Below the pieces are notes generated by a model. That model was not told the DNA's origin and did not search any database. It saw only the letters and a list, made by a program, of their open reading frames with translations. The position numbers and the translations under genes were made by a program. DNA of 64,000 nucleotides from a virus. The stretch lies in the IMG/VR virus record IMGVR_UViG_3300044701_003269, positions 110,187 through 174,186 of that record. One strand, written 5' to 3'. Of this stretch, positions 4,080 to 31,766 are shown piece by piece; the first letter of the stretch is position 1, and every line of letters starts with the position of its first letter.

Positions 4080-4574
4080 ATGAAAACAGTAGAAAGACAC
4101 AAATACGATAAGAATACCATCGTAAAGACAAGAAGATTAATTTTTAATCCTTATGAATATACTGAAAAGAATATGTGTCTTGTTGTGGGGTTGGTTCGTA
4201 GGAACTTAACCCCAGATTTGTTGAAAGGTAGAAAGAAACTGATGTATCCTGATGATGTAAAGACTAATCCCTGTTACGGTCATTGCTATCATTCCAGTCA
4301 AGCATTATTTTATCTTATGAATACAGACCAGTTAGTTCCAATGAGTGCAGAAGACTACAGAGGAGAAAAGCACTGGTGGTTACAGAATGGTGAAAAGATT
4401 TATGATGTAACTGCAGAGCAATATTATACTGTAGGGAAACTACCTCCTTATGCTTCTGGTAAGAAAACGGCATGGTATGGATGGAAAGGAAGACCACAAC
4501 AGATTTCATTAGATTTGATGGTTAGAGTACTTGGTGAGCGATTAGTGAGTGATGAGACATTCAAGGTCAATTAA
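4080..4574 (+). CDS. Hypothetical protein (possible Cys-His-Asp papain/transglutaminase-like triad)
   Basis: GHCY...HWWL...IYDVTAEQY; ends inside repeat copy 1. Confidence 0.6.
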   Translation: MKTVERHKYDKNTIVKTRRLIFNPYEYTEKNMCLVVGLVRRNLTPDLLKGRKKLMYPDDVKTNPCYGHCYHSSQALFYLMNTDQLVPMSAEDYRGEKHWWLQNGEKIYDVTAEQYYTVGKLPPYASGKKTAWYGWKGRPQQISLDLMVRVLGERLVSDETFKVN

Positions 4575-4604
4575 AGTTACTTAGCTCTAAAGTGGATCTA
4601 TAGT
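4569..4604 (+). repeat. 36-bp cassette-boundary repeat, copy 1
   Basis: AATTAAAGTTACTTAGCTCTAAAGTGGATCTATAGT. Confidence 0.95.
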
Positions 4605-4624
4605 GTGAGGGACAAACGGTTCAT

Positions 4625-4697
4625 ACCACTTCCTTCACTGCCACACTTGACAATGCTCTTCTGCTTTGTTATAGTAATCACGTTGGAAATTTCCAAC
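4625..4697 (+). promoter_or_regulatory. Sigma70-type promoter with upstream palindrome-like motif and a downstream perfect 16-bp palindrome
   Basis: ACCACT-N6-ACTGCC 4625-4642; TTGACA 4647-4652, 17 bp, TATAGT 4670-4675; GTTGGAAATTTCCAAC 4682-4697. Confidence 0.75.
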
Positions 4698-4738
4698 ACA
4701 ATGGTTCCGCTGCCTTAAAGCGTGTTCTTTACTTACAA

Positions 4739-5959
4739 TTGTCAATCATGACCACCGTTTCATATTCCGACAACCAGGTCGGTTCTTTTGCGCAAAAAAT
4801 CCTTGGAATTAAACTTCTAGAGGATTCTAAATTTGCGAAACTTCGTAATATGGTTGAGGATAATCTTGACCAAGTTGAGGTCATTTATCCTGAAGGAGAA
4901 TGTTCTCTCGATGTTGAAAATTTTGTTGAAAAACAAAAAAATCAAACTAATGAAAAACAAACCTATTCTGTTTCAGTTCCTGTAAATCTTATTGAATATG
5001 CTCAAGGACAAATTCGTTTAATTCAACCTAGTTTTTGTGAAGAAAATTTCACAAACTATAAATTTAAAGTAAATTTCCAGGAGTCAGAAACTCCGGTGTT
5101 TATCTTTAATGAAAAAACTGGAAGGTTTCAAGTTACTAAAAAACAACATACTACAATGCAAGCTTTGGCAATTGCATCTGCAGTAAATCCTAACATGACG
5201 ATTAGGGGTCGTGTTGTTGCTTTTAACTCAGATGTTAATCAAGAAGTCCGCGATCTTGAAGCATCTAATATTTTTTACCGAGAGGTAAAATCTATCAATA
5301 CCACAAAAGATTGGGAAAAACTTGAGCACCGCTGTCAACTTCATGAAGAAAGTGCTCTTCGTACTCGCTCCTTTTATCTGAGTATTCCTGGACTTACTTG
5401 GCAACCAGTTTCTCACGCTTATCCATTGGTGCAAAATTCTAAATGCACCATCACAAAAGTTCGTGAAATGGAACGCCTTGTTGGATGGGCTATTAACGAT
5501 GACCGTCTAGATGTTCTGAAGGAGATTGTTGAATCTCTTTCCACAGAAATCAATTGGGACAAAGAATCAGAATCTAAAGAAATTTCTTCATATCTTGTCA
5601 AAGCACTTTATAATTTTGATAAGATTATGGTTCCAATCTATGAAGAAAAAACTGGTGAAACTTTCGATACAATTGAATTTATTCGCTGGTACTTTAAGAA
5701 CAAAGTCCGTAAACAATCCATGGTGATTGGTAGCACTAAAGATACTAAAGGTGCCTGGCTTCAAGTTCTTCAAGTGTGCAATCGTGTTAACAACTACATG
5801 ACGAGTGAAGGTTTCGTTGAAGAAGCTTTCTTCACTTCAAAGAACAAATCTTTTGTTCAGTCTGTAATTAACCTCTGCAATGCAAATCGTAAAAAGGGAA
5901 ACTTGACTCCAGAAAAAGAAATCAAAGGTCAAATTACCGCTCGCTGCGATAGTTTCTAA
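4739..5959 (+). CDS. ParB/Srx-fold-like protein (DUF6551/DGQHR-like, degenerate motif); ATG start may be at 4748
   Basis: GRFQVTKKQHTT aligns by eye with VIDGQHT; followed by EASNIFYREVKSINTTKDWEK. Confidence 0.45.
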   Translation: MSIMTTVSYSDNQVGSFAQKILGIKLLEDSKFAKLRNMVEDNLDQVEVIYPEGECSLDVENFVEKQKNQTNEKQTYSVSVPVNLIEYAQGQIRLIQPSFCEENFTNYKFKVNFQESETPVFIFNEKTGRFQVTKKQHTTMQALAIASAVNPNMTIRGRVVAFNSDVNQEVRDLEASNIFYREVKSINTTKDWEKLEHRCQLHEESALRTRSFYLSIPGLTWQPVSHAYPLVQNSKCTITKVREMERLVGWAINDDRLDVLKEIVESLSTEINWDKESESKEISSYLVKALYNFDKIMVPIYEEKTGETFDTIEFIRWYFKNKVRKQSMVIGSTKDTKGAWLQVLQVCNRVNNYMTSEGFVEEAFFTSKNKSFVQSVINLCNANRKKGNLTPEKEIKGQITARCDSF

Positions 5960-6015
5960 TCCAGTAACCACACTGTCACAAGGGGTCGCTACTGACCCCT
6001 TTTTTGTTCTATAAT
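5960..6015 (+). promoter_or_regulatory. Early promoter/terminator module
   Basis: TCCAGT-N6-ACTGTC 5960-5977; hairpin AAGGGGTC/GACCCCTT plus T-run 5980-6005; TATAAT 6010-6015. Confidence 0.6.
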
Positions 6016-6036
6016 ACCTTCAGTTCTTAAAACACC

Positions 6037-6243
6037 ATGCCTACTAAGGTCAAAAAACAACTCATCAATGTTGCACCCAAGAGTTCGAAAGCGAAGAACC
6101 GCTTTTCAAATCTGATGGATAGACTTCACGCAATGGAAGTAGAGCAAGAGAATGAAACACAATTGTTTGTAGTTTCTATTAACCACCAATACTGCTTTTG
6201 GTTGAATAAGGAAAATGACCCACATTGGAACATTATTAAATAG
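6037..6243 (+). CDS. Hypothetical phage protein
   Basis: ORF directly downstream of a promoter module. Confidence 0.7.
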   Translation: MPTKVKKQLINVAPKSSKAKNRFSNLMDRLHAMEVEQENETQLFVVSINHQYCFWLNKENDPHWNIIK

Positions 6244-6260
6244 CTGTTAGTTGGAAAGTT

Positions 6261-6446
6261 ATGGTTGCCTTACTTGCTACAACTGTAATCAGCTGCTCTG
6301 ATGCTTTTAGGATTATTAATCGCATTGGAAATGTAATCGGACTTTCATATCAACAAAAGATAGAAGTCGTTAAAGTAGTCAGCCAGCACGTTCCTTCCTG
6401 TCCTCTGAAAATTATTTCTGATGAAAGACCAAAATCCAGTGATTGA
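6261..6446 (+). CDS. Hypothetical protein
   Basis: ORF track; packed gene run. Confidence 0.6.
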   Translation: MVALLATTVISCSDAFRIINRIGNVIGLSYQQKIEVVKVVSQHVPSCPLKIISDERPKSSD

Positions 6447-6615
6447 TGAAGAATCCAAAGACATAAAGTGGAATCGTGGGTTAGATTTGTTTATTGAATC
6501 AGTGCATAAACCTGATAGTGAGTTGCGACAGTGTGCTCACAATCAAAAATGCTACAATGAGTTAATGGAAGTGCGTGCTACTGTGCTAGAATATCTAAAA
6601 ACAATAAGAAGATGA
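6421..6615 (+). CDS. Hypothetical phage protein
   Basis: ORF track; ATGA overlap with the next gene. Confidence 0.7.
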   Translation: MKDQNPVIDEESKDIKWNRGLDLFIESVHKPDSELRQCAHNQKCYNELMEVRATVLEYLKTIRR

Positions 6616-6848
6616 CAGCACAATACATCTATCTCATCATCTTCTTTTGTGTTGGATATTTAATCGTTACAGATCAAAGTGTTGCAAGAGCAGTTGTATT
6701 TGTAACTCAAATCCTTAAGAATAAGTTTCTGGTGTTTAAGTGGTGGTTCATTCATAATCCCCGTCTTCCTTGGGCAAAGTATTCAATGTATAGAAACTCT
6801 ATGAAGATGGCAGAGGATCTAATGAAAGAACTTGAGGGCAGACAATAA
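6612..6848 (+). CDS. Hypothetical membrane protein
   Basis: Hydrophobic N-terminus. Confidence 0.7.
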   Translation: MTAQYIYLIIFFCVGYLIVTDQSVARAVVFVTQILKNKFLVFKWWFIHNPRLPWAKYSMYRNSMKMAEDLMKELEGRQ

Positions 6849-6893
6849 ACTGTCACACGACCCATTGATTTTTCTGTCAATGGGTCTTATAGT
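6837..6893 (+). promoter_or_regulatory. Early promoter module with -35 embedded in a stem-loop
   Basis: GGCAGA-N6-ACTGTC; hairpin GACCCATTGA/TCAATGGGTC 6859-6886; TTGATT-17-TATAGT. Confidence 0.65.
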
Positions 6894-6911
6894 ATAAACA
6901 TTGAAACACCT

Positions 6912-7343: not shown

Positions 7344-7537
7344 GTGATAGGTCGCAAGAGTTTATGAGTTTCGTATGGGACCAACGAAACAATCAAGGTG
7401 CTGATACTGAAGAAAAACTGGTCGCAGCTATTCTTTCCATTGCTGCCGAATATGTAGTCTCATACAACGCACAGGATGGAAGAGTTGTATTGGATAAAAA
7501 TGACTTATTGCAACTTGCTGAGGAACTAAAGCAATGA
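7340..7537 (+). CDS. Hypothetical protein
   Basis: 4-nt overlaps with both neighbours. Confidence 0.65.
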   Translation: MSDRSQEFMSFVWDQRNNQGADTEEKLVAAILSIAAEYVVSYNAQDGRVVLDKNDLLQLAEELKQ

Positions 7538-15890: not shown

Positions 15891-16055
15891 ATGACTCTTC
15901 CATCAAGGGGACAAGAGAATCTAACAGAAGATGAATGGTATAGAATGACCGCACTTAAAAATGTAATCAATCAAAGACCAGCAGCAGTTGTCCCAGAAAA
16001 AATGGAAGAGTTTACTGAGTATTTGGTGAGAAGTTTAAAAGAAAAGGGTGGTTGA
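15891..16055 (+). CDS. Small hypothetical protein (54 aa)
   Basis: Hand-called ORF; TGA overlaps repeat copy 2. Confidence 0.55.
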   Translation: MTLPSRGQENLTEDEWYRMTALKNVINQRPAAVVPEKMEEFTEYLVRSLKEKGG

Positions 16056-16090
16056 ATTAAAGTTACTTAGCTCCAAAGTGGACCTATAGT
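16055..16090 (+). repeat. 36-bp repeat, copy 2
   Basis: AATTAAAGTTACTTAGCTCCAAAGTGGACCTATAGT. Confidence 0.95.
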
Positions 16091-18893: not shown

Positions 18894-19134
18894 AGCACTT
18901 GGAGAGAAAGCAAGTAAATGTGATAAGGAAGCAGATAAAGTAGCACTCATCCGTCTACTGATTACCATACAAATTCTTGTCACTAACTTCTTTATCATCT
19001 ATGGTGTAATTCGTGTTAATCACTTCCCAATAGATAGACAACAAAAAGTTGAAGTTGTAATTGATGGTTCTGTGCTCCCAGAGTATCAACCTCCGCCAAG
19101 GAGAGGACTAAACAAACCACTTGAATTTGAATGA
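18856..19134 (+). CDS. Hypothetical membrane protein
   Basis: AKALGEKA...ADKVALIR plus TM segment; stop overlaps repeat copy 3. Confidence 0.65.
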   Translation: MKKQKTAWRLLAKALGEKASKCDKEADKVALIRLLITIQILVTNFFIIYGVIRVNHFPIDRQQKVEVVIDGSVLPEYQPPPRRGLNKPLEFE

Positions 19135-19169
19135 ATTAAAGTTACTTAGCTCTAAACTGGACCTATAGT
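19134..19169 (+). repeat. 36-bp repeat, copy 3
   Basis: AATTAAAGTTACTTAGCTCTAAACTGGACCTATAGT. Confidence 0.95.
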
Positions 19170-19716: not shown

Positions 19717-19745
19717 GGGTCCAGTTGAGAGGCTGGACCCTTTCT
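19717..19745 (+). terminator. Hairpin terminator
   Basis: GGGTCCAGT-TGAGAG-GCTGGACCC-TTTCT. Confidence 0.6.
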
Positions 19746-19784
19746 ATTGACTAAATACCTGAAAAGGGTTTATAGTCAATAAAG

Positions 19785-20468
19785 ATGAGAAGTTTTCAGC
19801 AGTTCATGTCTATTTGTGAGGAAGTTGAAGACAAGTCAAAGAGACTTGGATTTGCTGCTACAATTAAGACTGCACAAGCAGGTGGTAGGGTTCGCCCAGA
19901 ACGTAAGAAAACACCTGCCGAAATACGCAGAATGAAAGCTGTGGGTGGTGGTAAGATGGAACCTGTTGGTCCATACAAACCCCGCAAAGATATTGGAACT
20001 CAAAAGACTGCTGCTCAACGTCAGCAACAACCAGAGAAAGAGCGTGGAAGTAAGGAAGTCGCACAATCTTATGCTGAAAAAGTAAAAGCAGAACGTAGAG
20101 CAGCAGCACAAGCAAGAGCAGCAGCTAAGAAAGGTGGTTCTGCAACAACCACAGCAAAAGCAAAACCCAAAGACTTATCAAAACAAGCATCTCAACTTCT
20201 TTCAACAAAGAAAGCAGAAGAGAAACCAGCAACCCGCACAAATAGAAAGTGGAGAACTGAAACTGGTGCTGGTATGACAAAGAGCGAAAGAGCTAGTGCA
20301 AGAGGTAAAGAGAAAACTGCAAAAGCACAAGAAACTAAGAAATCTTCTAGTGAAATTCTTGCCAAGATGCGTAAAGAGTATGAAGAAGGTGGTGGTAAGT
20401 GGAGCAATGCTGTTGCAGTTAGAATGAGAGCAAAGGCAAAAGCAGCAGCACAAGCATCAGGAAGCTGA
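19785..20468 (+). CDS. Lys/Ala-rich late protein, candidate internal head protein
   Basis: Late-promoter-like CTAAATA 19751-19757; N-terminus MRSFQQFMSICEE resembles the T4 capsid-targeting sequence. Confidence 0.6.
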   Translation: MRSFQQFMSICEEVEDKSKRLGFAATIKTAQAGGRVRPERKKTPAEIRRMKAVGGGKMEPVGPYKPRKDIGTQKTAAQRQQQPEKERGSKEVAQSYAEKVKAERRAAAQARAAAKKGGSATTTAKAKPKDLSKQASQLLSTKKAEEKPATRTNRKWRTETGAGMTKSERASARGKEKTAKAQETKKSSSEILAKMRKEYEEGGGKWSNAVAVRMRAKAKAAAQASGS

Positions 20469-20473: not shown

Positions 20474-20509
20474 AATTAAAGTTACTTAGCTCCAAAGTGG
20501 ACCTATAGT
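20474..20509 (+). repeat. 36-bp repeat, copy 4
   Basis: Consensus copy followed directly by ATG. Confidence 0.95.
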
Positions 20510-20752: not shown

Positions 20753-20764
20753 TTAAATAAAAAT

Positions 20765-20857
20765 GTGGGCAGCAACTGTAGGTCTTGGCGGAAATATAGT
20801 TGCGTAAGTCCCACTTTTATTGTATAATAAATAGATATAGTCTCGCCAAGACCTACA
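20765..20857 (+). ncRNA. Structured leader element, copy B
   Basis: GTGGG..GCAACT-loop-AGTTGC..CCCAC; TGTAGGTCTTGGCG 20777-20790 is the exact complement of CGCCAAGACCTACA 20844-20857. Confidence 0.6.
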
Positions 20858-21274
20858 ATGAATAATAAAGAAGCGCAATGTGTGATGTGTGGTCGCACAT
20901 ATAAAAAGTATAGAAATAATCAGTTATATTGTTCTAGGATTTGTTGTGGTAAATCCGATAGAATAAAAAATGGTTATCAACATTCTTTAGAACATTTAAC
21001 AAAAGGCAAAATGGGTTCCATATCTGAACTTGAAGTTTGTACTTATTATCTAAAGCAAGGTTATGAAGTTTTTAGAAATGTAACCCAAGATGGTCTTGTT
21101 GATATCGTTATTTGGAAAAAGGAAACTAATGAAATCCATTTAATAGATGTCAAAACTTATCTTAAGAAAACTGACCCACAAAACTACATAAAGCAAATAG
21201 AGGAAAAAAATGATTTTGGTGTAAAAGTTGTTCCATACAATCATATAACTAAAGAAGTTTTAAGAGACCTCTAA
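20858..21274 (+). CDS. Zn-finger plus PD-(D/E)XK endonuclease (Hjc/I-Ssp6803I-like)
   Basis: CxxC...YCSxxC; GSISE...GYEVF...VDIVI...IDVKT; AT-rich. Confidence 0.7.
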   Translation: MNNKEAQCVMCGRTYKKYRNNQLYCSRICCGKSDRIKNGYQHSLEHLTKGKMGSISELEVCTYYLKQGYEVFRNVTQDGLVDIVIWKKETNEIHLIDVKTYLKKTDPQNYIKQIEEKNDFGVKVVPYNHITKEVLRDL

Positions 21275-21337
21275 ACACTTCTACAAGCGCCTCTAACACC
21301 ATTCTTCTTGTCTTTAGATACCAAACCACTGAGAACT

Positions 21338-21535
21338 ATGAATTATATTCAAATCCCTGATTTTGTGCTGGATAGTATCATCAACTCTCTTCAGCAAGGT
21401 TATGATGTTTGTGCTGGAGTTGATTATTCTTCCGATGAAACTGAGAAGAGACCAGAGTATGCAACTGGATACAGTCGTCCTACAATGTGGGATGTAATTG
21501 TGCGATTGAAGCAATACCAAGAGAAGACCAATTAA
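21338..21535 (+). CDS. Hypothetical protein
   Basis: MNYIQIP start; stop lies within repeat copy 5. Confidence 0.6.
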   Translation: MNYIQIPDFVLDSIINSLQQGYDVCAGVDYSSDETEKRPEYATGYSRPTMWDVIVRLKQYQEKTN

Positions 21536-21565
21536 AGTTACTTAGCTCCAAAGTGACCCTATAGT
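21530..21565 (+). repeat. 36-bp repeat, copy 5
   Basis: AATTAAAGTTACTTAGCTCCAAAGTGACCCTATAGT. Confidence 0.95.
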
Positions 21566-22813: not shown

Positions 22814-22925
22814 GTCTCACTGAGACCCCAGGCCACCACTGGGGTCAAAACCGGATTTTTCTGCAATTTTACGTCACAGACCCTATGGGTCATCCACCGC
22901 AACCAAATTCACGATTTTTCTCAAA

Positions 22926-23456
22926 GTGAACCCAAAGAACTGGAAAGCTTACTGCCAAACTACATTCAACTCATTGGCAGCAAATGTAGACAACTGGGGA
23001 GACCCTGATTTCTTCCGACCCATCACACGTTTGTTCTACATTGGCGTGTTCGATTGTGGGCAAGTGAATCATCTTGGTCTGATAAGTGAAGAAGCAAAAG
23101 ATAATGCTAAGGAGCGCACACACGACCATTGTTTGTCACCACAATTTATCGGTCGGATGATTATGGATAACCCAGACAAATACCTGTCTGATTATGATGT
23201 ATTTGAGAACCTGTTTTGGTTATCTTGCTCTACGATTACAGTGACCAAGGATGAGAATAGGAGACTAAGTATGCTGACAGAGAATGATGGCACAAACTAC
23301 AAAGTTCACGTTCCAACTAATCTCAAGTATCAGCATCTTGGCATCAAACTATATCAGAAGAATGGTGCAAGATGGGATAATGCTGTAGAATATGATGACA
23401 ACATTATTCCAGCACCTGTAGATTTGTTGGAATATGAGAAGAGGTTTCTAGTATGA
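22926..23456 (+). CDS. Hypothetical protein, possible HNH-like nuclease fold
   Basis: THDHCLSP...TITVTKDENRRL. Confidence 0.55.
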   Translation: MNPKNWKAYCQTTFNSLAANVDNWGDPDFFRPITRLFYIGVFDCGQVNHLGLISEEAKDNAKERTHDHCLSPQFIGRMIMDNPDKYLSDYDVFENLFWLSCSTITVTKDENRRLSMLTENDGTNYKVHVPTNLKYQHLGIKLYQKNGARWDNAVEYDDNIIPAPVDLLEYEKRFLV

Positions 23457-23629
23457 AAGAAGGATTTATTGTTGGCAAAGGTAACTATGCAGCCGTGCCC
23501 TATGGTAATCAACTGATGATCATTCACAACGGAGAGCAACTCAAAGTGTGTAGGACCGAAGCATCAGCACGAAAATTTATTGACGACCACAAAAAGGGTA
23601 AATCACAGGCAAAGCTTCCTGTCGATTAA
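23453..23629 (+). CDS. Small hypothetical protein (58 aa)
   Basis: Hand-called ORF MKEGFIVGKGNYAAVPYG...; TAA inside repeat copy 6. Confidence 0.65.
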   Translation: MKEGFIVGKGNYAAVPYGNQLMIIHNGEQLKVCRTEASARKFIDDHKKGKSQAKLPVD

Positions 23630-23659
23630 AGTTACTTAGCTCCAAAGCGGACCTATTGC
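23624..23659 (+). repeat. 36-bp repeat, copy 6
   Basis: GATTAAAGTTACTTAGCTCCAAAGCGGACCTATTGC. Confidence 0.9.
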
Positions 23660-23676
23660 ATGATCACCCAATTTCA

Positions 23677-24282
23677 ATGACTTTCCCACAACAACTCATT
23701 GATGCCGTTAATTATCTTTCTGGCATTGTAACAATCAGTGAGAATCACGAGGATGGTCGTGTGAATAGTATCACAGATGAAGATACTGTAATTGATCTCC
23801 TCATTGAAAAATATGGTGAAGAAAATGTACAAAAACCAGCAGCACGTTGCTGGTGGGATGTAAAATTATTTGGTTATCCTCTCAACATTAAGTCTTCCGA
23901 CTTTGCTAAGGGTGCATCAGACAACTTTTCATCTAAAGCAGCAATTCTTTATGCTTTGACTGATCTTCCCGAGGATAAAGTGATTGTTTCCTCCTGGGGT
24001 AAGTTTCAGGATGCCCTGAAGAATCATGGCGGAAAAGAAAATGACCGCGATTATTATATCATTGCAGTTGATAAGGGGACTCGCGAAGTTTATTTGCAGA
24101 GTCTTAAATCTCTGAACAAGCTAACTCCTAACGGCAACAATCTTCCATTCCAAATCAAGTGGAAAGATAACATTCAACCTGTTCAACGTGACTATGGACA
24201 ATCGTATGAGTTTCTGATAGAATGTTACAAGGAATCAGTACGCCGTAAGATTAACGCACACGATGGTTTTGAACAACTTTGA
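23677..24282 (+). CDS. Putative type II restriction endonuclease
   Basis: PD-(D/E)XK-like WWDVKLFGYPLNIKS; NGNNLPFQIKW; overlaps a DNA methyltransferase gene. Confidence 0.6.
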   Translation: MTFPQQLIDAVNYLSGIVTISENHEDGRVNSITDEDTVIDLLIEKYGEENVQKPAARCWWDVKLFGYPLNIKSSDFAKGASDNFSSKAAILYALTDLPEDKVIVSSWGKFQDALKNHGGKENDRDYYIIAVDKGTREVYLQSLKSLNKLTPNGNNLPFQIKWKDNIQPVQRDYGQSYEFLIECYKESVRRKINAHDGFEQL

Positions 24283-25033
24283 TCTGCAATTTGGGGATTG
24301 TTTGGAGTTGATGCAATCAATTCCAGACGAATCTATTGATTTTATTTGTTGCGATCCTCCTTATGGAACTACTAGCATTAAGTGGGATTCTGTTCTCGAT
24401 TTCAACGAGATGTGGGAACAGTATGGTAGAATCATTAAACCGAAAGGTATAATTTGTCTGTTTGGTTCTCAACCTTTCTCTGCACAACTTATCTGCTCAA
24501 AGATTAACTGGTTCAGGTACGAATTAGTATGGAACAAAAACAAATGTGGGTCGCCTGGACTTGCCAAATACAGACCAATGAAGACCCACGAGAATATAAT
24601 GATCTTCTCCAAAGAATCAGGTGGAACTTACAACCCACAGATGGAAAAAGGAGAACCATACTCAAGAACAAGTAAAAATCCTGAGGGTTACGTTGGGAGA
24701 AAAAATGATCACGGTTATGGTATGAAACCTCGCAAATCATTCTCCAATGATGGTACTAGGTATCCAAAGTCAGTTCTCAACATTTCTAGAGATTTCAGTG
24801 CTCAGCAACAAGTTCATCCAACACAAAAACCTGTTCCTCTGATGGAATGGTTGATCAAGACTTATTCTAACGAAGGTGAAACTGTACTTGACAATTGTAT
24901 GGGATCTGGATCAACTGGTGTAGCAGCTGTTAAACTTGGTCGCAAGTTTATTGGAATGGATAGTGATCCTGGATACTTTGAAATTGCTCAAGATAGAATC
25001 ACTCAGATTCCCGTGGATGTTACCTCATTCTAG
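24263..25033 (+). CDS. DNA amino-methyltransferase (N6-A/N4-C, beta class)
   Basis: GDCLE, CDPPYG, HPTQKP, LDNCMGSGSTG; catalytic motif precedes the SAM-binding motif. Confidence 0.92.
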   Translation: MVLNNFDLQFGDCLELMQSIPDESIDFICCDPPYGTTSIKWDSVLDFNEMWEQYGRIIKPKGIICLFGSQPFSAQLICSKINWFRYELVWNKNKCGSPGLAKYRPMKTHENIMIFSKESGGTYNPQMEKGEPYSRTSKNPEGYVGRKNDHGYGMKPRKSFSNDGTRYPKSVLNISRDFSAQQQVHPTQKPVPLMEWLIKTYSNEGETVLDNCMGSGSTGVAAVKLGRKFIGMDSDPGYFEIAQDRITQIPVDVTSF

Positions 25034-25046
25034 CAAACTTTTATCA

Positions 25047-25082
25047 AATTAAAGTTACTTAGCTCCAAAGCGGACCTGTAGT
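25047..25082 (+). repeat. 36-bp repeat, copy 7
   Basis: AATTAAAGTTACTTAGCTCCAAAGCGGACCTGTAGT. Confidence 0.95.
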
Positions 25083-26006
25083 ATGAAGACCAAACCGATG
25101 CAAAACAAGCACCTAGAGCACCCAGAAGATGAGATTTTGACTGGCAATCTGTCAGTGCTTGATTGGTTCTCTGAGGTAGAATCTACTATCAGTGTGAAGA
25201 TGGATGGTGCCCCAGCTATTGTGTGGGGAACTAATCCTCAGAATGGTAAGTTCTTTGTCTGCACCAAAGCAGCATTTAACAAGAAAAAGATTCGCCTTTG
25301 CTATAACGAAGATGACATCTTCACCCATTTCGGTGGACAACCAAGGGTAACACAGATTCTCATTTTCTGCCTAGATTTCCTGCCTCGCACTCAACAAGTG
25401 ATGCAAGGTGATTGGATTGGTTTTGGTGGTGGGTTGGATACATTTACTCCCAATACGATTACTTACAAGTTCCCTGCGCCAGTTCGCCAGGATATTGTTA
25501 TCGCTCCACATACAATCTACAGCGGTTCCGATGACATTCGTGAGATGACTGCTGCTCCTCTGACTAGCAAACTCATCAGCACTAAGCATTGCTTGTTCGT
25601 GCAGCCTGAAGTCGAACTTAACCCTTTCCGTGAGGATTTGGAGGATGTGTGTAAGTTTGCCAAGCAAATGTCTACTCTGTGTGAGTTTGTGAGCGATAAG
25701 AAAGCATCACAAATCAAAAAAGAGATTAACGCTTGCATCCGTGAGGAAAAGGTCGTGGATGAAAATGAAATTGCAGAAAAATGTGATTGTGACAAGTATC
25801 TCATCTCTTTGTGGAAACTGGTGAAGTCTATCAAGGATGATTTGTTCCTTTTCATTCACGAACTGGATGAGATTGAGTGCTCTATTGGTGATGAGGTAAG
25901 TTTCCACGAAGGTTATGTCATTCGCAACAAGTTTGGTACTTACAAAGTCGTTGACCGTGAAACATTCTCTCACGCAAACTTTACCATCGCCAAGAATTGG
26001 GGGTGA
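25083..26006 (+). CDS. DUF6267-like protein with ligase/nucleotidyltransferase motifs
   Basis: HLEHPED, SVKMDGAP (motif I KxDG), QGD, HEGYV, YKVVDR. Confidence 0.65.
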   Translation: MKTKPMQNKHLEHPEDEILTGNLSVLDWFSEVESTISVKMDGAPAIVWGTNPQNGKFFVCTKAAFNKKKIRLCYNEDDIFTHFGGQPRVTQILIFCLDFLPRTQQVMQGDWIGFGGGLDTFTPNTITYKFPAPVRQDIVIAPHTIYSGSDDIREMTAAPLTSKLISTKHCLFVQPEVELNPFREDLEDVCKFAKQMSTLCEFVSDKKASQIKKEINACIREEKVVDENEIAEKCDCDKYLISLWKLVKSIKDDLFLFIHELDEIECSIGDEVSFHEGYVIRNKFGTYKVVDRETFSHANFTIAKNWG

Positions 26007-26040
26007 TTAAAGTTGCTTAGCTTCAAAGTGGACTTATAGT
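26005..26040 (+). repeat. 36-bp repeat, copy 8
   Basis: GATTAAAGTTGCTTAGCTTCAAAGTGGACTTATAGT. Confidence 0.9.
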
Positions 26041-26283
26041 ATGACAACCACTGAAATGACCGACACTATTAACGACCTTACAGTAACACGTTCCCTGCGC
26101 CTGCTGCGTGATGGTTTCAAAAGTGATTTTGCGACCTTTGCTTACAATGACGAAAGGATGACAGAACTTATAGCACAACTTGCAAGTGAGTTTGTAGAAT
26201 CAAACATTCCTGTGATTGATGAAGACAACCAGATGGAACTTTCTATGATGCTGTTGGAATCCCTGGAGATTATTGTACGATGA
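26041..26283 (+). CDS. Hypothetical protein
   Basis: ORF abutting the repeat. Confidence 0.65.
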   Translation: MTTTEMTDTINDLTVTRSLRLLRDGFKSDFATFAYNDERMTELIAQLASEFVESNIPVIDEDNQMELSMMLLESLEIIVR

Positions 26284-26537
26284 AACTCTTTCAATACGAT
26301 AAAAAAGTTTGGGAAGGTGGTGAAACTTCACGCACTTGGCAGTTTGGTATCTTCAAAAATCATTCATTTCTGTGGGTGAATTATGAGAACCCCAGTTGTC
26401 AAGTTTATCCTTCTGGTGGTCTTCATATCCTACTCTCATTTTTTACCAGTTCTTTATTTGGAGTAGATTTTCAGATTGGTAAATATGATTTGAGTTTTAA
26501 CTTTTTTACTGAATACTTTGAGGGGTGGAATGAATGA
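26280..26537 (+). CDS. Hypothetical protein
   Basis: ORF track; similar character to ORF 7534. Confidence 0.6.
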   Translation: MKLFQYDKKVWEGGETSRTWQFGIFKNHSFLWVNYENPSCQVYPSGGLHILLSFFTSSLFGVDFQIGKYDLSFNFFTEYFEGWNE

Positions 26538-26788
26538 CTTACTCTAATCTCTCAAAGATTCGTCCTAAACTTCGTACTGAAGGTCGCATAACTGGAAATT
26601 GGGGAAAACCAAAGGTTTCTGCGGGTTCTACACTCAACGACATCGGTGGTGATGGTAACATAGGAGCAACACAAGACGAATACTTAAATCGTCTGTATTA
26701 TGCTTTTGATAACACTACCGACCCCAAACTTCAACGCTTCATTTACTCTGAAATCCGTAAAATTCACATTCAAAGAGGTACTTGGTAA
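26534..26788 (+). CDS. Hypothetical phage protein
   Basis: ORF track. Confidence 0.65.
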   Translation: MTYSNLSKIRPKLRTEGRITGNWGKPKVSAGSTLNDIGGDGNIGATQDEYLNRLYYAFDNTTDPKLQRFIYSEIRKIHIQRGTW

Positions 26789-27273
26789 TGGCAACTTGGC
26801 GAGCAGATGTATTCGTAAACTCCCGCGTCGGACGTATCACGACTGAGGTTCAAGCTTCGACATTCTCTGGTGCAAAAGAGCAAATCTATGCAAAGCACGG
26901 TGACGTTCAACAAATTGCTAATCTGAGAGAGGTTAGAAATAGTGGCAGTTCTTCAGGTTCTGATTTTGGTAGTATTGGTGGAACTGTAGGACTCATCGGA
27001 TTGGTTGCAGCTGCATGGGCATTTGTATCATTCACTCCCTGGATTTTGATGGGTTTAGGTGGTGCTTTCGGAACTTGGGTTGGTGAGAAAGTAACAGGAC
27101 AAAGCATCGAAGAATATAACGAACGTGATGATGATTTGGGACACTCAAAGGCAGCAATCGTTCTTGCACTTGCACTTATTCTAGGTGGACTTGGTTTCGT
27201 CAAAGGTGATGAAATCAAAAAAGGATTTGATGTCCCTGATGCACCTGCAGAAGTGAAAAGTACGCAGAATTAA
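26788..27273 (+). CDS. Hypothetical membrane protein
   Basis: Gly-rich TM segments; stop within repeat copy 9. Confidence 0.7.
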   Translation: MATWRADVFVNSRVGRITTEVQASTFSGAKEQIYAKHGDVQQIANLREVRNSGSSSGSDFGSIGGTVGLIGLVAAAWAFVSFTPWILMGLGGAFGTWVGEKVTGQSIEEYNERDDDLGHSKAAIVLALALILGGLGFVKGDEIKKGFDVPDAPAEVKSTQN

Positions 27274-27303
27274 AGTTACTTAGCTCCAAAGTGGACCTAT
27301 AGT
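27268..27303 (+). repeat. 36-bp repeat, copy 9
   Basis: Consensus copy. Confidence 0.95.
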
Positions 27304-27528
27304 ATGAACATCACTGAAATGCCCGAAGTCTACCACTATCACACCAACTGGAAAGAAGGTAAAGTGAATCAAATGTGGATTCAGCAAGTGAATGACAAGT
27401 TCGTTGCTATTGCATACAACCCCGAAAAGAATGTTTCGATGCCTATGTCGAAACCCCGCACTTCCTACGATGAAACTCTACAATGGGTTCGCAAATGGTG
27501 CGGCACTTTCTGTATCCTTCCTGCCTGA
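27304..27528 (+). CDS. Hypothetical protein
   Basis: ORF abutting the repeat. Confidence 0.65.
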   Translation: MNITEMPEVYHYHTNWKEGKVNQMWIQQVNDKFVAIAYNPEKNVSMPMSKPRTSYDETLQWVRKWCGTFCILPA

Positions 27529-27531
27529 TTG

Positions 27532-27693
27532 ATGATGACTAACATAACCGAACTTGAGGATTTTTTGCGCGAAAAGTGTATGGAAAGTCCTGCACTTCTT
27601 GCTGTAGTGATTGGTGAATACATTAAGAGTTTGAATAAATCTCAAATCACTCAGCTTGAGGACTTCCTTATCGACAACTTCGGTGACAATTAA
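27532..27693 (+). CDS. Small hypothetical protein
   Basis: Hand-called; TAA within repeat copy 10. Confidence 0.55.
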   Translation: MMTNITELEDFLREKCMESPALLAVVIGEYIKSLNKSQITQLEDFLIDNFGDN

Positions 27694-27723
27694 AGTTACT
27701 TAGCTCTAAAGTGGACCTATAGT
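27688..27723 (+). repeat. 36-bp repeat, copy 10
   Basis: AATTAAAGTTACTTAGCTCTAAAGTGGACCTATAGT. Confidence 0.95.
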
Positions 27724-27906
27724 ATGACAAACACCAATCCCTACGTTCAAAACCTCATCGAAATGGGTTACGATGAGAAAGACTGCCAAATGGTTGCTGA
27801 TGCTGGGCGTCAGAAAGTTACCTACCCTCGTACCATTCACGGTCGCACTTTTGCTACTGAAACTGAGTACAAAGAAGCACTCGCAGACTTCATCAACGGT
27901 CTGTGA
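27724..27906 (+). CDS. Hypothetical protein (single-gene cassette)
   Basis: Fills exactly the interval between repeat copies 10 and 11. Confidence 0.7.
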   Translation: MTNTNPYVQNLIEMGYDEKDCQMVADAGRQKVTYPRTIHGRTFATETEYKEALADFINGL

Positions 27907-27941
27907 ATTAAAGTTACTTAGCTCCAAAGCGGACCTATAGT
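27906..27941 (+). repeat. 36-bp repeat, copy 11
   Basis: AATTAAAGTTACTTAGCTCCAAAGCGGACCTATAGT. Confidence 0.95.
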
Positions 27942-28109: not shown

Positions 28110-28115
28110 TTGATT

Positions 28116-28280
28116 ATGACACAAACCACTCTCACTTTTGAGGAGATTGATGCTCTTCTGGTACTCATTGAACATCACACAAAAGAAAGTTGGCATGAAA
28201 TGGTTGAGATTACTGGTTACGATGTAGGCATCTGCAGAGATCTTTATGACAAACTCACTGAAATGCAGGATGAAGTCTGA
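28116..28280 (+). CDS. Small hypothetical protein
   Basis: Hand-called MTQTTLTFEEIDALL... Confidence 0.55.
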   Translation: MTQTTLTFEEIDALLVLIEHHTKESWHEMVEITGYDVGICRDLYDKLTEMQDEV

Positions 28281-28414
28281 TGAGAATTGCTTTTCTGATT
28301 GCAACTTTAGCACTGGGACTTCGCCTTGGTTTGAGTGCTCATGCTACAGTGAATGAGTATCAAGAACAGCAAGCAGATCGCTTCTGTCAGATAGATCCAA
28401 GCTACTGCAATTAA
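28280..28414 (+). CDS. Small secreted/membrane peptide
   Basis: Hand-called MRIAFLIATLALG...; TAA within the truncated repeat. Confidence 0.55.
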   Translation: MRIAFLIATLALGLRLGLSAHATVNEYQEQQADRFCQIDPSYCN

Positions 28415-28424
28415 AGTTACTTAG
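28409..28424 (+). repeat. Truncated (left-half) repeat copy
   Basis: AATTAAAGTTACTTAG then diverges. Confidence 0.85.
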
Positions 28425-28434
28425 GACTCACATT

Positions 28435-28611
28435 ATGACTAACAATGCTTTCATTCTCAACGACACTGCAAAGAATGATGCTGCAGTGCAACTTGCAATG
28501 GCAAATTATGTCAAACAGTTGGAGCGTGAAGAAGCACGTAGGCAAGCAATTCTCTCTGGGAAGTATATTCCTTGCCCCGAAACTGTTTGGAACATCTCTG
28601 ACCGCGATTGA
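28435..28611 (+). CDS. Small hypothetical protein
   Basis: Hand-called MTNNAFILNDTAKND... Confidence 0.55.
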   Translation: MTNNAFILNDTAKNDAAVQLAMANYVKQLEREEARRQAILSGKYIPCPETVWNISDRD

Positions 28612-28752
28612 TGGCAAGGAGACTAACACTTAGGAATCCATCGAAAGTGAAAACGATTGCACTTGTCTTCATCGTTGCAATGATACTCTCACCAGGAGTT
28701 CGCAACACAACATCCAACACACTACACACATTAGCAGACATTATTTCGACCA

Positions 28753-28893
28753 ATGATTGAGACTGAGTTCTTTCTTCTGAATGAGGAACAATTCAATGAG
28801 TATAGCACACTTGCAGATGAAGCTGGTGTGAATATTGACTATTACTTGTCAGAGTTTTGTGATGTGATTGGACCTGATGTTATCGTCAATTAA
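28753..28893 (+). CDS. Small acidic hypothetical protein
   Basis: Hand-called; TAA within repeat copy 12. Confidence 0.55.
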   Translation: MIETEFFLLNEEQFNEYSTLADEAGVNIDYYLSEFCDVIGPDVIVN

Positions 28894-28923
28894 AGTTACT
28901 TAGCTCCAAAGCGGACCTATAGT
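28888..28923 (+). repeat. 36-bp repeat, copy 12
   Basis: GCGG variant. Confidence 0.95.
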
Positions 28924-29211
28924 ATGAACATCACTGACCTCTTCGACTCCATCAAACTCAGCGAGCAGATTGCTCTCGAACACTATCAACAACTCAACGG
29001 TGTTGTTGATTATCGGTTGCCCGGAGTTTGTAACCACTACTTCGCAAAGTATGATTTGCAAGGTACACGAGATGGCGAAATCTGCCTGACCTGTAAAGTT
29101 GCCAAGACTGTAAAAGGTCAGTTGCGTTATACCTTCCAAATCAACGGTAAGCGTATCGCAGAAAAGCAAATTGCTGCTGAGTTTAATGCTCTCGGTGCTT
29201 TCACTCACTGA
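28924..29211 (+). CDS. Hypothetical protein
   Basis: ORF abutting the repeat. Confidence 0.7.
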   Translation: MNITDLFDSIKLSEQIALEHYQQLNGVVDYRLPGVCNHYFAKYDLQGTRDGEICLTCKVAKTVKGQLRYTFQINGKRIAEKQIAAEFNALGAFTH

Positions 29212-29217
29212 CATCAA

Positions 29218-29403
29218 ATGAACAATCAAACTAACATTGAAGCAACAGTATTTGCAGCAGTTGTAGGCATTATCATCATCGCACTTGCCTTTGCTATTTT
29301 ACACTTTCGCAATCCACAAATCGAAGCAAAGTGTATTGCAAAAGGAGGACAAGTTCTTGTTACTCCAGGTCGCATCAGTTCTTGTCTTTATCCGAGCAGG
29401 TAA
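29218..29403 (+). CDS. Small TM protein
   Basis: Hydrophobic N-terminus; stop overlaps repeat copy 13. Confidence 0.6.
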   Translation: MNNQTNIEATVFAAVVGIIIIALAFAILHFRNPQIEAKCIAKGGQVLVTPGRISSCLYPSR

Positions 29404-29437
29404 TTAAAGTTACTTAGCTCCAAAGCGGACCTATAGT
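29402..29437 (+). repeat. 36-bp repeat, copy 13
   Basis: GCGG variant. Confidence 0.95.
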
Positions 29438-29461
29438 ATCACCACACATAACCAAAACCAA

Positions 29462-29773
29462 ATGCGAGTTATCGAACGCCAAATGAATAAAGCAATCAGC
29501 ACTGAGACTGATTGGAAGAAAGACAACACACAAGTTGTCAACATCGAAGGTGTCAGCTTTGTCTATCTGTATAACAATCTGATTGCAATGGTAGGTGATA
29601 CTTGGTTGGAATTGTTTGATGGTGGATATAAGTCTGCCACGACTAAATCGCGTCTCAATGCTATTCTTGCAGAGCACGGGAATAGCGAGTATGTCTATCA
29701 GAAAAACTTTGAATGGTTTGTGTCTACTAAGTATGGAGATGTTCCTTTCTACAATACCATCAAGTTGAACTGA
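29462..29773 (+). CDS. Conserved hypothetical phage protein (MRxIE...TTKSRLNA family)
   Basis: DGGYKSATTKSRLNAIL...VYQKNFEW. Confidence 0.75.
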   Translation: MRVIERQMNKAISTETDWKKDNTQVVNIEGVSFVYLYNNLIAMVGDTWLELFDGGYKSATTKSRLNAILAEHGNSEYVYQKNFEWFVSTKYGDVPFYNTIKLN

Positions 29774-29808
29774 ATTAAAGTTACTTAGCTCCAAAGCGGA
29801 CCTATAGT
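29773..29808 (+). repeat. 36-bp repeat, copy 14
   Basis: GCGG variant. Confidence 0.95.
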
Positions 29809-29979
29809 ATGACTGACACTCAAATGACTACCAAGCAAAAGGAAACCTTCCGCGATCTCTTCACTGAAGACCAGTGGGATATGATCTACAACTTCGTCGG
29901 AAATGCACTCGATGATGATGATTTTGATGCAGAAGATGTGTATAGCATCCGCAACAAGATTCACGCACTGTTTAACTGA
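29809..29979 (+). CDS. Small hypothetical protein
   Basis: Hand-called MTDTQMTTKQKETFRDLFTEDQW... Confidence 0.6.
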   Translation: MTDTQMTTKQKETFRDLFTEDQWDMIYNFVGNALDDDDFDAEDVYSIRNKIHALFN

Positions 29980-29990
29980 AACTCACTGAA

Positions 29991-30182
29991 ATGACAATGA
30001 CATTTACTGAAGCACTTATCGCATCTGGTTATTACTTCCAACCTGAATGTGGTGCATTTCATAAAGCAGATGCCAATGGAAATGAGCACTCTTATGTAGA
30101 GCAAGATGAGAACACTTGGTCCTATGAAAAGTATAACCAAGACGGTCAACTTGTGTCTTCTAAAGTATTCTCACTGGACTGA
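29991..30182 (+). CDS. Hypothetical protein
   Basis: Stop overlaps repeat copy 15. Confidence 0.65.
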   Translation: MTMTFTEALIASGYYFQPECGAFHKADANGNEHSYVEQDENTWSYEKYNQDGQLVSSKVFSLD

Positions 30183-30217
30183 ATTAAAGTTACTTAGCTC
30201 CAAAGTGGACCTATAGT
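30182..30217 (+). repeat. 36-bp repeat, copy 15
   Basis: Consensus copy. Confidence 0.95.
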
Positions 30218-30397
30218 ATGAGCAACCAACTTCAGCAAATCTGCCTAGACAAAGCACAACAAATTGCCAATGAAATCAACGGTGATTTGTATTATGTCCC
30301 ACAAGAAGACATCGACCAACTGTTATCTCAACTCACCGAAGATAATGTAGATGATGTTGCTGAAGAACTTGCCGAATTAGCACACTGGTTTAACTAA
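30218..30397 (+). CDS. Small acidic hypothetical protein (59 aa)
   Basis: Hand-called MSNQLQQICLDKAQQIANEING... Confidence 0.6.
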   Translation: MSNQLQQICLDKAQQIANEINGDLYYVPQEDIDQLLSQLTEDNVDDVAEELAELAHWFN

Positions 30398-30589
30398 ATG
30401 ACCGAACAACAAAAGGATACAATGCTCGCAAACATCCTAGAGCAAGTCCAATCTCAAATCGAACATTTAGTCGATCAAGATTTAATCGAAGAGTCTTATG
30501 CTCTGTATAAAGAATGGGAAGAACATTTCGATCCTAATGTTAAACAACTAGAAATCATTACTGTTATCGATCTCACTACTATTCAATGA
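30398..30589 (+). CDS. Hypothetical protein
   Basis: ORF track. Confidence 0.6.
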   Translation: MTEQQKDTMLANILEQVQSQIEHLVDQDLIEESYALYKEWEEHFDPNVKQLEIITVIDLTTIQ

Positions 30590-30792
30590 AACCTTTTCTA
30601 AACATCACGTTTGCTGTTGAACTTCTAGTCCTCACTTGTCTTGCTACAGTAGCAGTCAATGCACAATCAAACAATAACGAAAACGTCAACAAGTTCTGTG
30701 CCTATGTTGTAGGAATACCATATGCATCAGATAACTTTACTGATGAAGAATGGGAGAGGTTCAAGTATTGTAGAGACACACTCAATCAGTAA
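30586..30792 (+). CDS. Hypothetical secreted/membrane protein
   Basis: Signal-like N-terminus. Confidence 0.6.
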   Translation: MKPFLNITFAVELLVLTCLATVAVNAQSNNNENVNKFCAYVVGIPYASDNFTDEEWERFKYCRDTLNQ

Positions 30793-30908
30793 CACATAGT
30801 GAGGAAGGAGTTTGCCTCATCTACAAAAGAAAGTGACTCTGTAAAGTGATAGATAATTCCTATTCATTTGGTGGCGCTTGCGCTCCCCCTTCGGGAGTTG
30901 GATTATAG

Positions 30909-30937
30909 AGAGAGGGAGTGGTTACCCTCTCTTTTTT
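30909..30937 (+). terminator. Rho-independent terminator
   Basis: AGAGAGGG..CCCTCTCT-TTTTT. Confidence 0.7.
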
Positions 30938-31161
30938 ATTGCCAAAAAACGTTATTTTAATGCTTAAATGTTATGAAATCAATAAAAAAGCCTTTTTTAA
31001 TTATAGCTAAGCGGTTTATTTGTTCTCAATAAGATGTTAGTTATTGAGAATCAATAAGGGTTCTAATTGAGAATTAGTGACCTTTTATACCCTATTAAAC
31101 CCTTCTAGACCTGACACTTATACCCTTTTAAATGTGCTGAGACCTTGTGATCTTTGCCTGC

Positions 31162-31190
31162 AAGCTATCACACACGCGCACAAATGTCAA
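31162..31190 (-). promoter_or_regulatory. Leftward sigma70-type promoter
   Basis: Minus strand TTGACA-17-TAGCTT with extended TGn. Confidence 0.55.
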
Positions 31191-31263
31191 GCACCCCCGC
31201 GTTATCAAATCCCCACACATACCTCATAAAATCTCCACGCCCCGAATAAATACCCCCAAGGAC

Positions 31264-31292
31264 TTGACAACAATTCCCAGGCATCTTACAAT
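31264..31292 (+). promoter_or_regulatory. Sigma70-type promoter
   Basis: TTGACA-17-TACAAT. Confidence 0.75.
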
Positions 31293-31321
31293 ACCTACAG
31301 TAACACTCAAGGAGCACACTT

Positions 31322-31495
31322 ATGTCGGTTGCGTATCAGAAAGCTCAGAAGCAGCGTTATAGAGTCACCCTAGAACTTGAGGTCTTCGAAGACTTCGACC
31401 CGCACCAACTTGACTGGGAGAAAGTATTTAAGTTGGAACCAGCTGAGAAGGTAGAAGCATACGTAGAAGACCTAAGTAGACCTGATAGGTGGTAA
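31322..31495 (+). CDS. Small hypothetical protein (57 aa)
   Basis: AAGGAG SD; MSVAYQKAQKQRYRVTLELEVFEDFDPHQLDWEK...; own promoter and terminator. Confidence 0.7.
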   Translation: MSVAYQKAQKQRYRVTLELEVFEDFDPHQLDWEKVFKLEPAEKVEAYVEDLSRPDRW

Positions 31496-31522
31496 CTTAT
31501 AAAACCTCATATACACTCCTTG

Positions 31523-31547
31523 AAAGACTCCTAGTGGGGTCTTTTTT
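31523..31547 (+). terminator. Rho-independent terminator
   Basis: AAAGACTCC-TAGT-GGGGTCTTT-TTT. Confidence 0.7.
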
Positions 31548-31553
31548 AATGCC

Positions 31554-31582
31554 TTGACATACCTTACTGTTTCTGATACAAT
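31554..31582 (+). promoter_or_regulatory. Sigma70-type promoter
   Basis: TTGACA-17-TACAAT with extended TG. Confidence 0.7.
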
Positions 31583-31730
31583 TACCTTTGTGGAGGTTAA
31601 TAAGGGAACTATGAGTAAGCTTAAGCCACCAGTCTTATTATACACCAGAGAACACCGTTAGGTAATCACGAACGTAGTGAGTGATTGAGTAGAGAACTGT
31701 AAGGACCTAAGTGATACGTAGAGATGCACC

Positions 31731-31766
31731 AAATAAAGTTGCTTAGCTGCAAAGTGGACTTATAGT
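31731..31766 (+). repeat. 36-bp repeat, copy 16 (divergent)
   Basis: AAATAAAGTTGCTTAGCTGCAAAGTGGACTTATAGT. Confidence 0.85.

Follow-up and report, generated by a model that had tools for sequence, protein, structure and literature searches.

The window analysed here is a stretch of 64,000 nucleotides, bases 110187–174186 of the viral record IMGVR_UViG_3300044701_003269, a 174,186-bp IMG/VR contig that is 83% complete, and our subject is a 36-bp repeat that recurs within it in a block of small open reading frames (ORFs) that immediately precedes the genes for the baseplate wedge in a T4-like cyanomyovirus. A first-pass annotation had reported 16 same-strand copies, and all of them were re-derived at the same coordinates, with every intact copy (16/16) on the + strand: a pattern search of the window with the 36-mer returned 14 copies at three mismatches or fewer, against an expectation of 0 from shuffled sequence, and the copies at 26005 and 31731, with four mismatches each, bring the total to 16. 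Beyond these, no intact copy was found in the 174,186-bp contig by a pattern search of the whole record or by an nhmmer profile run over it; the profile search, which the annotation had proposed, adds only a decayed copy at 28409–28438. All 17 copies (16 intact and one decayed) lie within the small-ORF block and are co-oriented with the genes.

The repeat fits closely between coding sequences. The stop codon of the upstream gene lies within or overlaps the start of the repeat (bases −2 to 6) in 13 of the 16 copies, the exceptions being those at 20474, 25047 and 31731, and an ATG follows base 36 directly in 12 of 16, ten of these opening the downstream gene; both re-counts agree with the numbers first given. 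The other two abutting ATGs (copies at 23624 and 31731) open mini-ORFs of 6 and 16 codons, respectively, whose TGA overlaps the real start as ATGA, and the ORF at 27724–27906 does, as had been claimed, exactly span the gap between two copies. Within the block of ~37 genes at 19–32 kb most junctions without a copy abut or overlap, and the copies therefore constitute most of its non-coding DNA. The cargo was also described correctly, comprising a ResIII/DEAD helicase, an N6_N4 methylase with a weakly ThaI-like endonuclease neighbour, which form the restriction-modification (R-M) pair, and a DUF6267 protein. Column counts indicate that the conserved unit exceeds 36 bp, running from a weak AAnTT at −10 to −6, through RTRA at 37–40, to an A/C-rich stretch that ends at ~47. 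The individual features are listed below, where L-numbers denote related contigs.

Copy 1, 4569..4604, +: GTG class; leads the array and is followed by ~11.5 kb of small ORFs without another copy.
Copy 2, 16055..16090, +: GTA class; gene ATG at +17 (16108).
Copy 3, 19134..19169, +: GTA class; ATGs at +6 and +18.
Copy 4, 20474..20509, +: ATG at 37, plus an in-frame ATG at +15.
Copy 5, 21530..21565, +: heads the helicase gene; relatives L007, L010 and L011 have extra copy-flanked cassettes here.
Copy 6, 23624..23659, +: box degenerate (TATTGC); bounds the R-M cassette slot on the left.
Copy 6 mini-ORF, 23660–23680: six codons from the fused ATG; ATGA overlap with the gene start at 23677.
Copy 7, 25047..25082, +: TGTAGT variant; bounds the R-M slot on the right and heads the DUF6267 gene.
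Copy 8, 26005..26040, +: four mismatches; left border of a cassette missing from L012.
Copy 9, 27268..27303, +: L005 and L013 carry a 1266-bp copy-flanked cassette here; L137 and L138 are without 27307–27687.
Copy 10, 27688..27723, +: heads a 60-aa gene whose sole start is the ATG at 37, kept in all orthologues.
Copy 11, 27906..27941, +: sole start codon is the ATG at 37.
Decayed 17th copy, 28409..28438, +: 10-bp internal deletion and mutated box; L005 is intact at the same junction.
Copy 12, 28888..28923, +: left border of a cassette missing from L014.
Copy 13, 29402..29437, +: ATC class; gene ATG at +24; heads the Kyano_Gp96 gene.
Copy 14, 29773..29808, +: ATG at 37, plus an in-frame ATG at +15.
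Copy 15, 30182..30217, +: sole start codon is the ATG at 37.
Copy 16, 31731..31766, +: four mismatches; the fused ATG opens a 16-codon mini-ORF.
Copy 16 mini-ORF, 31767–31817: its stop overlaps the gene start at 31814 as ATGA.
Separate canonical unit, 19717..19776, +: terminator hairpin at 19717–19740, then TTGACT-18-TATAGT; distinct from the repeat.

The related contigs contain leaders beginning RTGAGGGRCACA that resemble the mini-ORFs, after several copies (L137 at 4387, 4960 and 5245).

The repeat of the window is one lineage's version of a widespread motif, AATTAAAGTTACT-N4-TCYAAAGTG-N6-TAGTRT. The exact variant of the window occurs in several copies each in 16 IMG/VR stretches, and the relaxed pattern GTTACT-N4-TCYAAAGTG-N6-TAGT has matches in at least 115, from which 253 unique instances were assembled into a family logo; the start-codon statistics given further on use 315 instances. 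Positions that the pattern leaves free are still conserved among the 253, namely AATTAAA at 1–7, R37, T38, R39 and A40, followed by sCAMCAC, together with the upstream AAnTT. The N6 segment (27–32) is nearly free, and N4 reads CACC in 88% of the family and TAGC, the form carried by the window, in 12%. T33, A34 and T38 are near-invariant, which fits TAnnnT, and position 43 is A in 79% of instances, whereas TATAGT at 31–36 is not universal, ~40% of the family reading AGTAGT, in contrast to TAGTRT at 33–38, which is. Among cultured phages, SynMITS9220M01 carries 11 copies at 38.9–50.0 kb, likewise upstream of its baseplate genes, S-B05 and its relatives carry a few, and Syn9 has no copy of the motif. 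The 21-base core was not found in 185,579 prokaryote species (one genome each), bar a single chance match in Lysinibacillus, and the motif is therefore not a host promoter class, a candidate that we rejected on the grounds that the core is private to phages. Rfam holds no match for the repeat, a literature search with the letters of the motif returned unrelated primers only, and literature searches for a description of a cyanophage early element gave nothing usable. The majority variant contains TCACCTCC at motif positions 12–20, the same letters as the anti-Shine-Dalgarno sequence at the 3′ end of 16S rRNA, a likeness that is probably coincidental, as the TAGC variant of the window lacks it.

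Judging by orthologous junctions, the copies evolve in concert. The N4 and N6 variants are contig-specific (GACCTA, TCCTAG, TACCTA, CCACAG and others), and at no fewer than six junctions shared by the window and L014 the flanks are 77–94% identical, whereas the repeats match at 25–29 of 36 positions only, with differences at 14, 16 and 27–32 that are uniform within each contig; concerted evolution of this kind implies frequent exchange among the copies. Mixed arrays are present in L014 (first copy), L038, L021 and L081, and heterogeneous N6 lineages in L027, L044 and L119, which together suggest that the private N4/N6 box is neutral and not the target of a specific factor. A trans-acting factor that reads this contig-private box, which we had also considered, is weakened by the mixed arrays.

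Comparison of the window with 19 related contigs, including extra relatives taken from metagenome contigs, yielded 37 unique indel or replacement events with 61 breakpoints. The repeat is carried by 14 of 38 junctions (37% expected) and by 32 of the 61 breakpoints (binomial p = 0.009), an enrichment that is modest and has to be read with the knowledge that the events are non-independent, that selection retains gene-boundary events only, and that metagenome assemblers can mis-join at repeats of 40–55 bp, the last of these caveats being offset by the recurrence of several event topologies in independent samples. The events comprise five repeat-to-repeat deletions or replacements (at 23656–25047, 26048–27269, 27307–27687 and 28942–29403), four insertions flanked by two copies (at 21530, with three alleles, and at 27268), and one swap of gene order, in which the genes at 29218–29403 and 29462–29773 have exchanged places in L137/L138. 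The R-M slot at 23656–25047 holds at least two other cargoes (~310 bp and ~1740 bp), and precise losses from two copies to one account for 26048–27269 in L012, 27307–27687 in L137/L138 and 28942–29403 in L014. The cassette in the 27268 slot (L005 540–1801, likewise L013) encodes an uncharacterised 179-aa protein and a methylase 48% identical to that of the window, and may represent a second R-M-like system of different specificity.

The expectation in the first-pass annotation that gene-content breakpoints between relatives would fall at the repeat thus holds as an enrichment and not as a rule, for 10 of the 37 events touch no repeat, among them clean single-gene losses at 20757–21305, 22917–23453, 26283–26534, 28119–28280 and 28611–28754. 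Its notion of a standardised joint is sound in so far as the repeat heads groups of genes and relatives gain, lose, replace and reorder blocks there, and goes too far in so far as the repeat is a favoured seam that gene flux does not require. Several of the off-repeat single-gene differences coincide with overlaps of the ATGA type, which suggests a second, microhomology-based route of gene loss and gain.

Turning to function, the geometry of the window's repeat places AATTAAA at 1–7, GTTACT at 8–13, a 17-bp spacer, and TATAGT at 31–36, with the two A/T tracts (AAnTT at −10 to −6 and AATTAAA at 1–7) standing where the distal and proximal subsites of an upstream promoter (UP) element would be. 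This arrangement, GTTACT-17 bp-TATAGT with A/T tracts upstream, points toward a duplicated early promoter, and our preferred reading, held with some reservation, is that the repeat is probably an early-gene promoter module of a T4-like cyanomyovirus lineage, similar to the promoter-early stem-loops (PeSLs) of other T4-type phages but without the stem-loop. Each copy would then serve as a transcription-initiation module for early accessory genes, the A/T tracts acting as UP subsites, GTTACT as the −35 and TATAGT (31–36), or the family's TAGTRT (33–38), as the −10, and host RNA polymerase would start near 43–46. The ATG of the ancestral gene, 15–21 nt past the box, would yield a very short leader without a Shine-Dalgarno sequence, and the abutting ATG, made of the last bases of the −10-like hexamer, would be read at least on read-through transcripts that arrive from upstream copies. 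Identity over ~40–55 bp at so many junctions would also allow the phage's own homologous recombination to homogenise the copies, and the same homology would offer preferred, non-exclusive crossovers for the deletion, insertion, replacement and reordering of gene blocks.

Inspection of the element's 3′ end found no Shine-Dalgarno sequence, the leader being A/C-rich, and a consensus scan placed no terminator-like site next to any of the copies. Other assignments of the boxes were set aside: a −10 of TAAAGT at 4–9 is not conserved in SynMITS9220M01, a −10 of YAAAGT at 20–25 is without its closing T in 6 of the window's 16 copies, and a sigma-28-like −35, TAAAGTTT, has no matching −10. A resemblance to T7/T3-like promoters found no support, there being no match to PF00940, though the positive control likewise matched nowhere.

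The start codons are of two kinds. The triplet after the box is GTA or ATA in 46% of instances (145/315), and in these the gene's ATG lies at +15 to +21, with a peak at 17–18; an ATG abuts the box in 54% (170/315), in frame with the gene in 161 of 170, and 64 of those 161 have a second in-frame ATG at exactly +15. The ancestral N-terminus of the helicase, MQIQLRPHQ, begins at such a second ATG (+15), and this, with the spacing of the start codons, leads us to regard box, short A/C-rich leader and ATG as the ancestral module. Ribosomes nevertheless appear to see the fused ATG, because it is so often in frame, because it is the sole start in 69 instances, and because at the 60-aa gene at 27724 it is kept in every orthologue, that of SynMITS9220M01 included, with synonymous third-position changes starting four codons past it.

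Several of these observations weigh against the promoter reading. GTTACT matches TTGACA at only 3 of 6 positions, for which reason the consensus scan makes no sigma-70 call at the repeat, and the earlier remark that this is not a textbook TTGACA promoter is borne out; in the ~40% of the family with AGTAGT only TAGTRT at 33–38 works, and GTTACT then stands 19 bp away. The 26-bp upstream block holds far more information than a −35 and an UP element require, and since it is both information-rich and not found in the prokaryote genomes, there may be a protein dedicated to reading it. The fused ATG is the sole possible start for 69 of 161 family instances and, within the window, for the genes at 27724, 27942, 28924 and 30218, so that a start site at 43–46 obliges fused-ATG genes to depend on read-through from upstream copies; such read-through is plausible across a terminator-free array, but some copies would then be unable to serve their own gene. 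For the recombination half of the reading, the modest size of the breakpoint enrichment, the non-independence of the events and the possibility of assembly mis-joins at repeats count in the same direction.

A first alternative keeps the promoter-type module but has a phage-specific factor, possibly delivered with the virion, bind the 26-bp block (1–26) and position host RNA polymerase, the first transcribed base coinciding with the ATG at 37 or lying a little before it, to give mRNAs that are leaderless or have leaders of at most 5 nt; such a dedicated specificity system for early transcription, as opposed to a sigma-70 look-alike, we regard as doubtful. All 253 instances have a purine at position 37, with T36 before it, an A/C-rich stretch follows the ATG, and the in-frame bias of the abutting ATG (161/170, sole start in 69) and the retention of the fused ATG at 27724, with synonymous changes only from four codons onward, would follow directly from such a start, but read-through from upstream copies explains the in-frame bias too, and 46% of the family, with GTA or ATA, start 15–21 nt later. 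The block is phage-private, absent from prokaryote genomes, and conserved even where N6 drifts; however, a start at or just before 37 would imply a non-standard reader of it, since no TAnnnT hexamer lies at −12 to −7 relative to 37, positions 25–30 are the least conserved, and the YAAAGT alternative at 20–25 suffers from the lost T mentioned above. The mixed arrays of L014, L038, L021 and L081 speak against a strict box-specific reader, and the analysis brought forward no candidate factor. That this cyanomyovirus clade possesses a private early-transcription code, in which a phage protein, possibly injected, reads AATTAAAGTTACTCACCTCYAAAGTG and places host RNA polymerase at or near the AUG, is thus a conjecture we rate as rather unlikely; were it true, the early regulon would be leaderless and the phage would have a functional counterpart of T4 MotA/AsiA at work from time zero, and recombination among private early signals would double as the engine of accessory-gene shuffling.

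An RNA-level role is improbable by comparison with the promoter module that we prefer. The repeat would here be an intercistronic element on polycistronic early transcripts, with no promoter of its own, that supplies a stop codon in each frame, re-initiation or ribosome loading with a built-in AUG, or a processing site. The window variant does have stops in three frames (TAA at 4–6, TAG at 14–16 and TAG at 33–35), 13 of 16 upstream genes have their stop codon at its very beginning, genes share the frame of the ATG at 37, and each of the two ATGs that are out of frame starts a mini-ORF whose end overlaps the real start as ATGA; the TAG at 14–16 is, however, missing from the majority CACC variant, and a Shine-Dalgarno sequence is absent. 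RNAalifold found 0 pairs on 39 diverse copies and the repeat belongs to no Rfam family, which leaves the RNA-processing role that the first-pass annotation had entertained unsupported; with neither consensus pairs nor N4–N6 covariation, the idea of a hairpin, an attC site or an RNA structure was rejected. Array-leading and isolated copies exist (4569 and 16055), conservation reaches upstream into the last codons of the preceding gene with UP-like A/T phasing, and most of the ~37-gene block would otherwise be without an evident promoter.

A dedicated, integron-like site of site-specific recombination, served by a recombinase that is encoded elsewhere or of unfamiliar type, is very improbable, for although the cassettes are bounded by copies, one slot takes alternative cargoes, two-to-one deletions are precise, gene order can be swapped and the contig is only 83% complete, no match to PF00589 or PF00239 occurs in its 174 kb, the repeat has neither inverted core sites nor a hairpin, 10 of 37 events use no repeat, the overlaps of 41–59 bp at event junctions fit homologous exchange over the whole repeat, and T4-type phages are highly recombinogenic, PeSL circles forming by homologous crossover at varying points (PMC2839356).

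The promoter module proposed here stands beside signals of another style. A strong terminator hairpin (GGGTCCAG...CTGGACCC and a T-run) at 19717–19740 is followed by a canonical promoter at 19747 and a gene at 19785, and this unit, with TTGACT-18-TATAGT (19717–19776), resembles a classical PeSL although it stands within the array. Beyond the array, canonical TTGACA-17-TAnnnT sites lie at 31264–31292, 31554–31582 and 32502–32530, two of them with TG, and because such sites exist outside the repeat, the genome would use two promoter styles. A terminator at 30907–30934 lies beside these near-consensus host-type promoters just beyond the dense array, and the combination may mark a switch to another temporal class.

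Two observations concern the surroundings of the array. Upstream of it, the ORF at 389–1108 strongly matches phage families annotated as ferrochelatase (phrog_2954, E = 2e-57) and is a possible tetrapyrrole-related auxiliary metabolic gene. Downstream, ORFs of 4169 aa (37366–49875) and 1908 aa (51473–57199) follow the gp25/gp6-like baseplate-wedge genes, and the former matches by position a large SynMITS9220M01 gene annotated 'baseplate wedge initiator'.

T4-like cyanophages are responsible for the death of a large fraction of the picocyanobacteria in the sea and in fresh water, and to our knowledge the way in which they launch early transcription without MotA/AsiA is poorly understood. A phage-private, information-rich element present in at least 115 uncultured contigs and in the cultured SynMITS9220M01 makes start site, reader and timing directly testable, and the array would explain in concrete terms how microdiversity arises in the early accessory region, a diversity that includes alternative R-M-like cassettes at different slots in otherwise close relatives. 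That promoter modules can serve as seams for recombination is, as a principle, already established in T4-type coliphages and vibriophages, so that only the demonstration of a dedicated reader, or of leaderless initiation, would make the advance more than incremental.

Among known systems, integrons were the comparison made in the first-pass annotation, and the array does share with them short, same-orientation sites between cassettes of very different content, R-M genes included. The array is nonetheless not an integron, because it fails on the features that define one. Neither a tyrosine (PF00589) nor a serine (PF00239) recombinase was detected in the 174-kb, 83%-complete contig, in a search whose control matched 14 of 14 genomes, so that the hunt for a recombinase in the rest of the genome, proposed earlier, came back empty. 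No attC-like hairpin was seen, and, as the annotation had itself observed, the repeat contains no inverted RYYYAAC/GTTRRRY core pair. Every copy carries −35/−10-like boxes and A/T tracts, a predicted signal on account of which the cassettes would not be promoterless, and exchange looks homologous; the analogy does not stand.

A second comparison is with the early element of other cyanophages. Doron et al. in 2016 reportedly found a conserved novel element upstream of the early genes of T4-like cyanophages, whose middle genes have host-like promoters, the early element being said to be non-host-like and abundant in genomes and metagenomes. The present motif is at most a candidate for that element. 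Syn9 lacks the window's motif and carries a different repeated box of the same layout, ...A(T/C)ACTATAAGAGTCAAAGG..., in five copies (46339, 47254, 48608, 51050 and 53046). The ACTATAAGAGTCAAAGG box also occurs in ACG-2014a (L135), at 1990–2075 and 3428–3515, where it heads an R-M pair and a helicase, the copy before the R-M pair directly following a terminator hairpin; its distance to the ATG is ~17–19 nt (~19 in ACG-2014a), and it is possibly the early element of the Syn9 and ACG-2014a lineages.

The closest likeness is to the PeSLs, known from the T4-type phages RB49/phi1, T4/PST and KVP40/nt-1 (Arbiol et al. 2010, PMC2839356; Comeau et al. 2014, PMC4122927), for which a role in recombination was shown experimentally in T4-type coliphages, circles having been recovered from RB49/phi1 by inverse PCR (PMC2839356). 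Like PeSLs, the copies are dense, same-strand, conserved intergenic modules among small ORFs in a hyperplastic region of a T4-like genome, a location that the equivalent placement of the SynMITS9220M01 array supports; they present an AT-rich tract, −35/−10-type boxes at N17 and then a start codon, a content that is promoter-like to judge from the letters; and, as in RB49/phi1, small-ORF indels and replacements occur at the modules, with two flanking copies in one phage against one copy in the other (PMC2839356). Unlike PeSLs, the repeat has no stem-loop or terminator and no Shine-Dalgarno sequence, the upstream stop codon overlaps it in 13 of 16 copies, its −35 is poor (3/6), its start codon lies at a fixed 0 or +15 to +21 and is often fused to the −10-like box, and conservation extends over a 26-bp block, spacer included, in hundreds of copies from many phages. 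We file it as a PeSL-like variant because location, promoter-like content and indel association hold while stem-loop and Shine-Dalgarno sequence fail. The kind of element is already known from PeSLs, the cyanophage early element of Doron et al. probably being another instance; particular to the present analysis are the family-wide logo, the finding that cellular genomes lack the motif, the link to SynMITS9220M01, the evidence from orthologous junctions for concerted evolution, and a quantified, partial association of the repeat with breakpoints.

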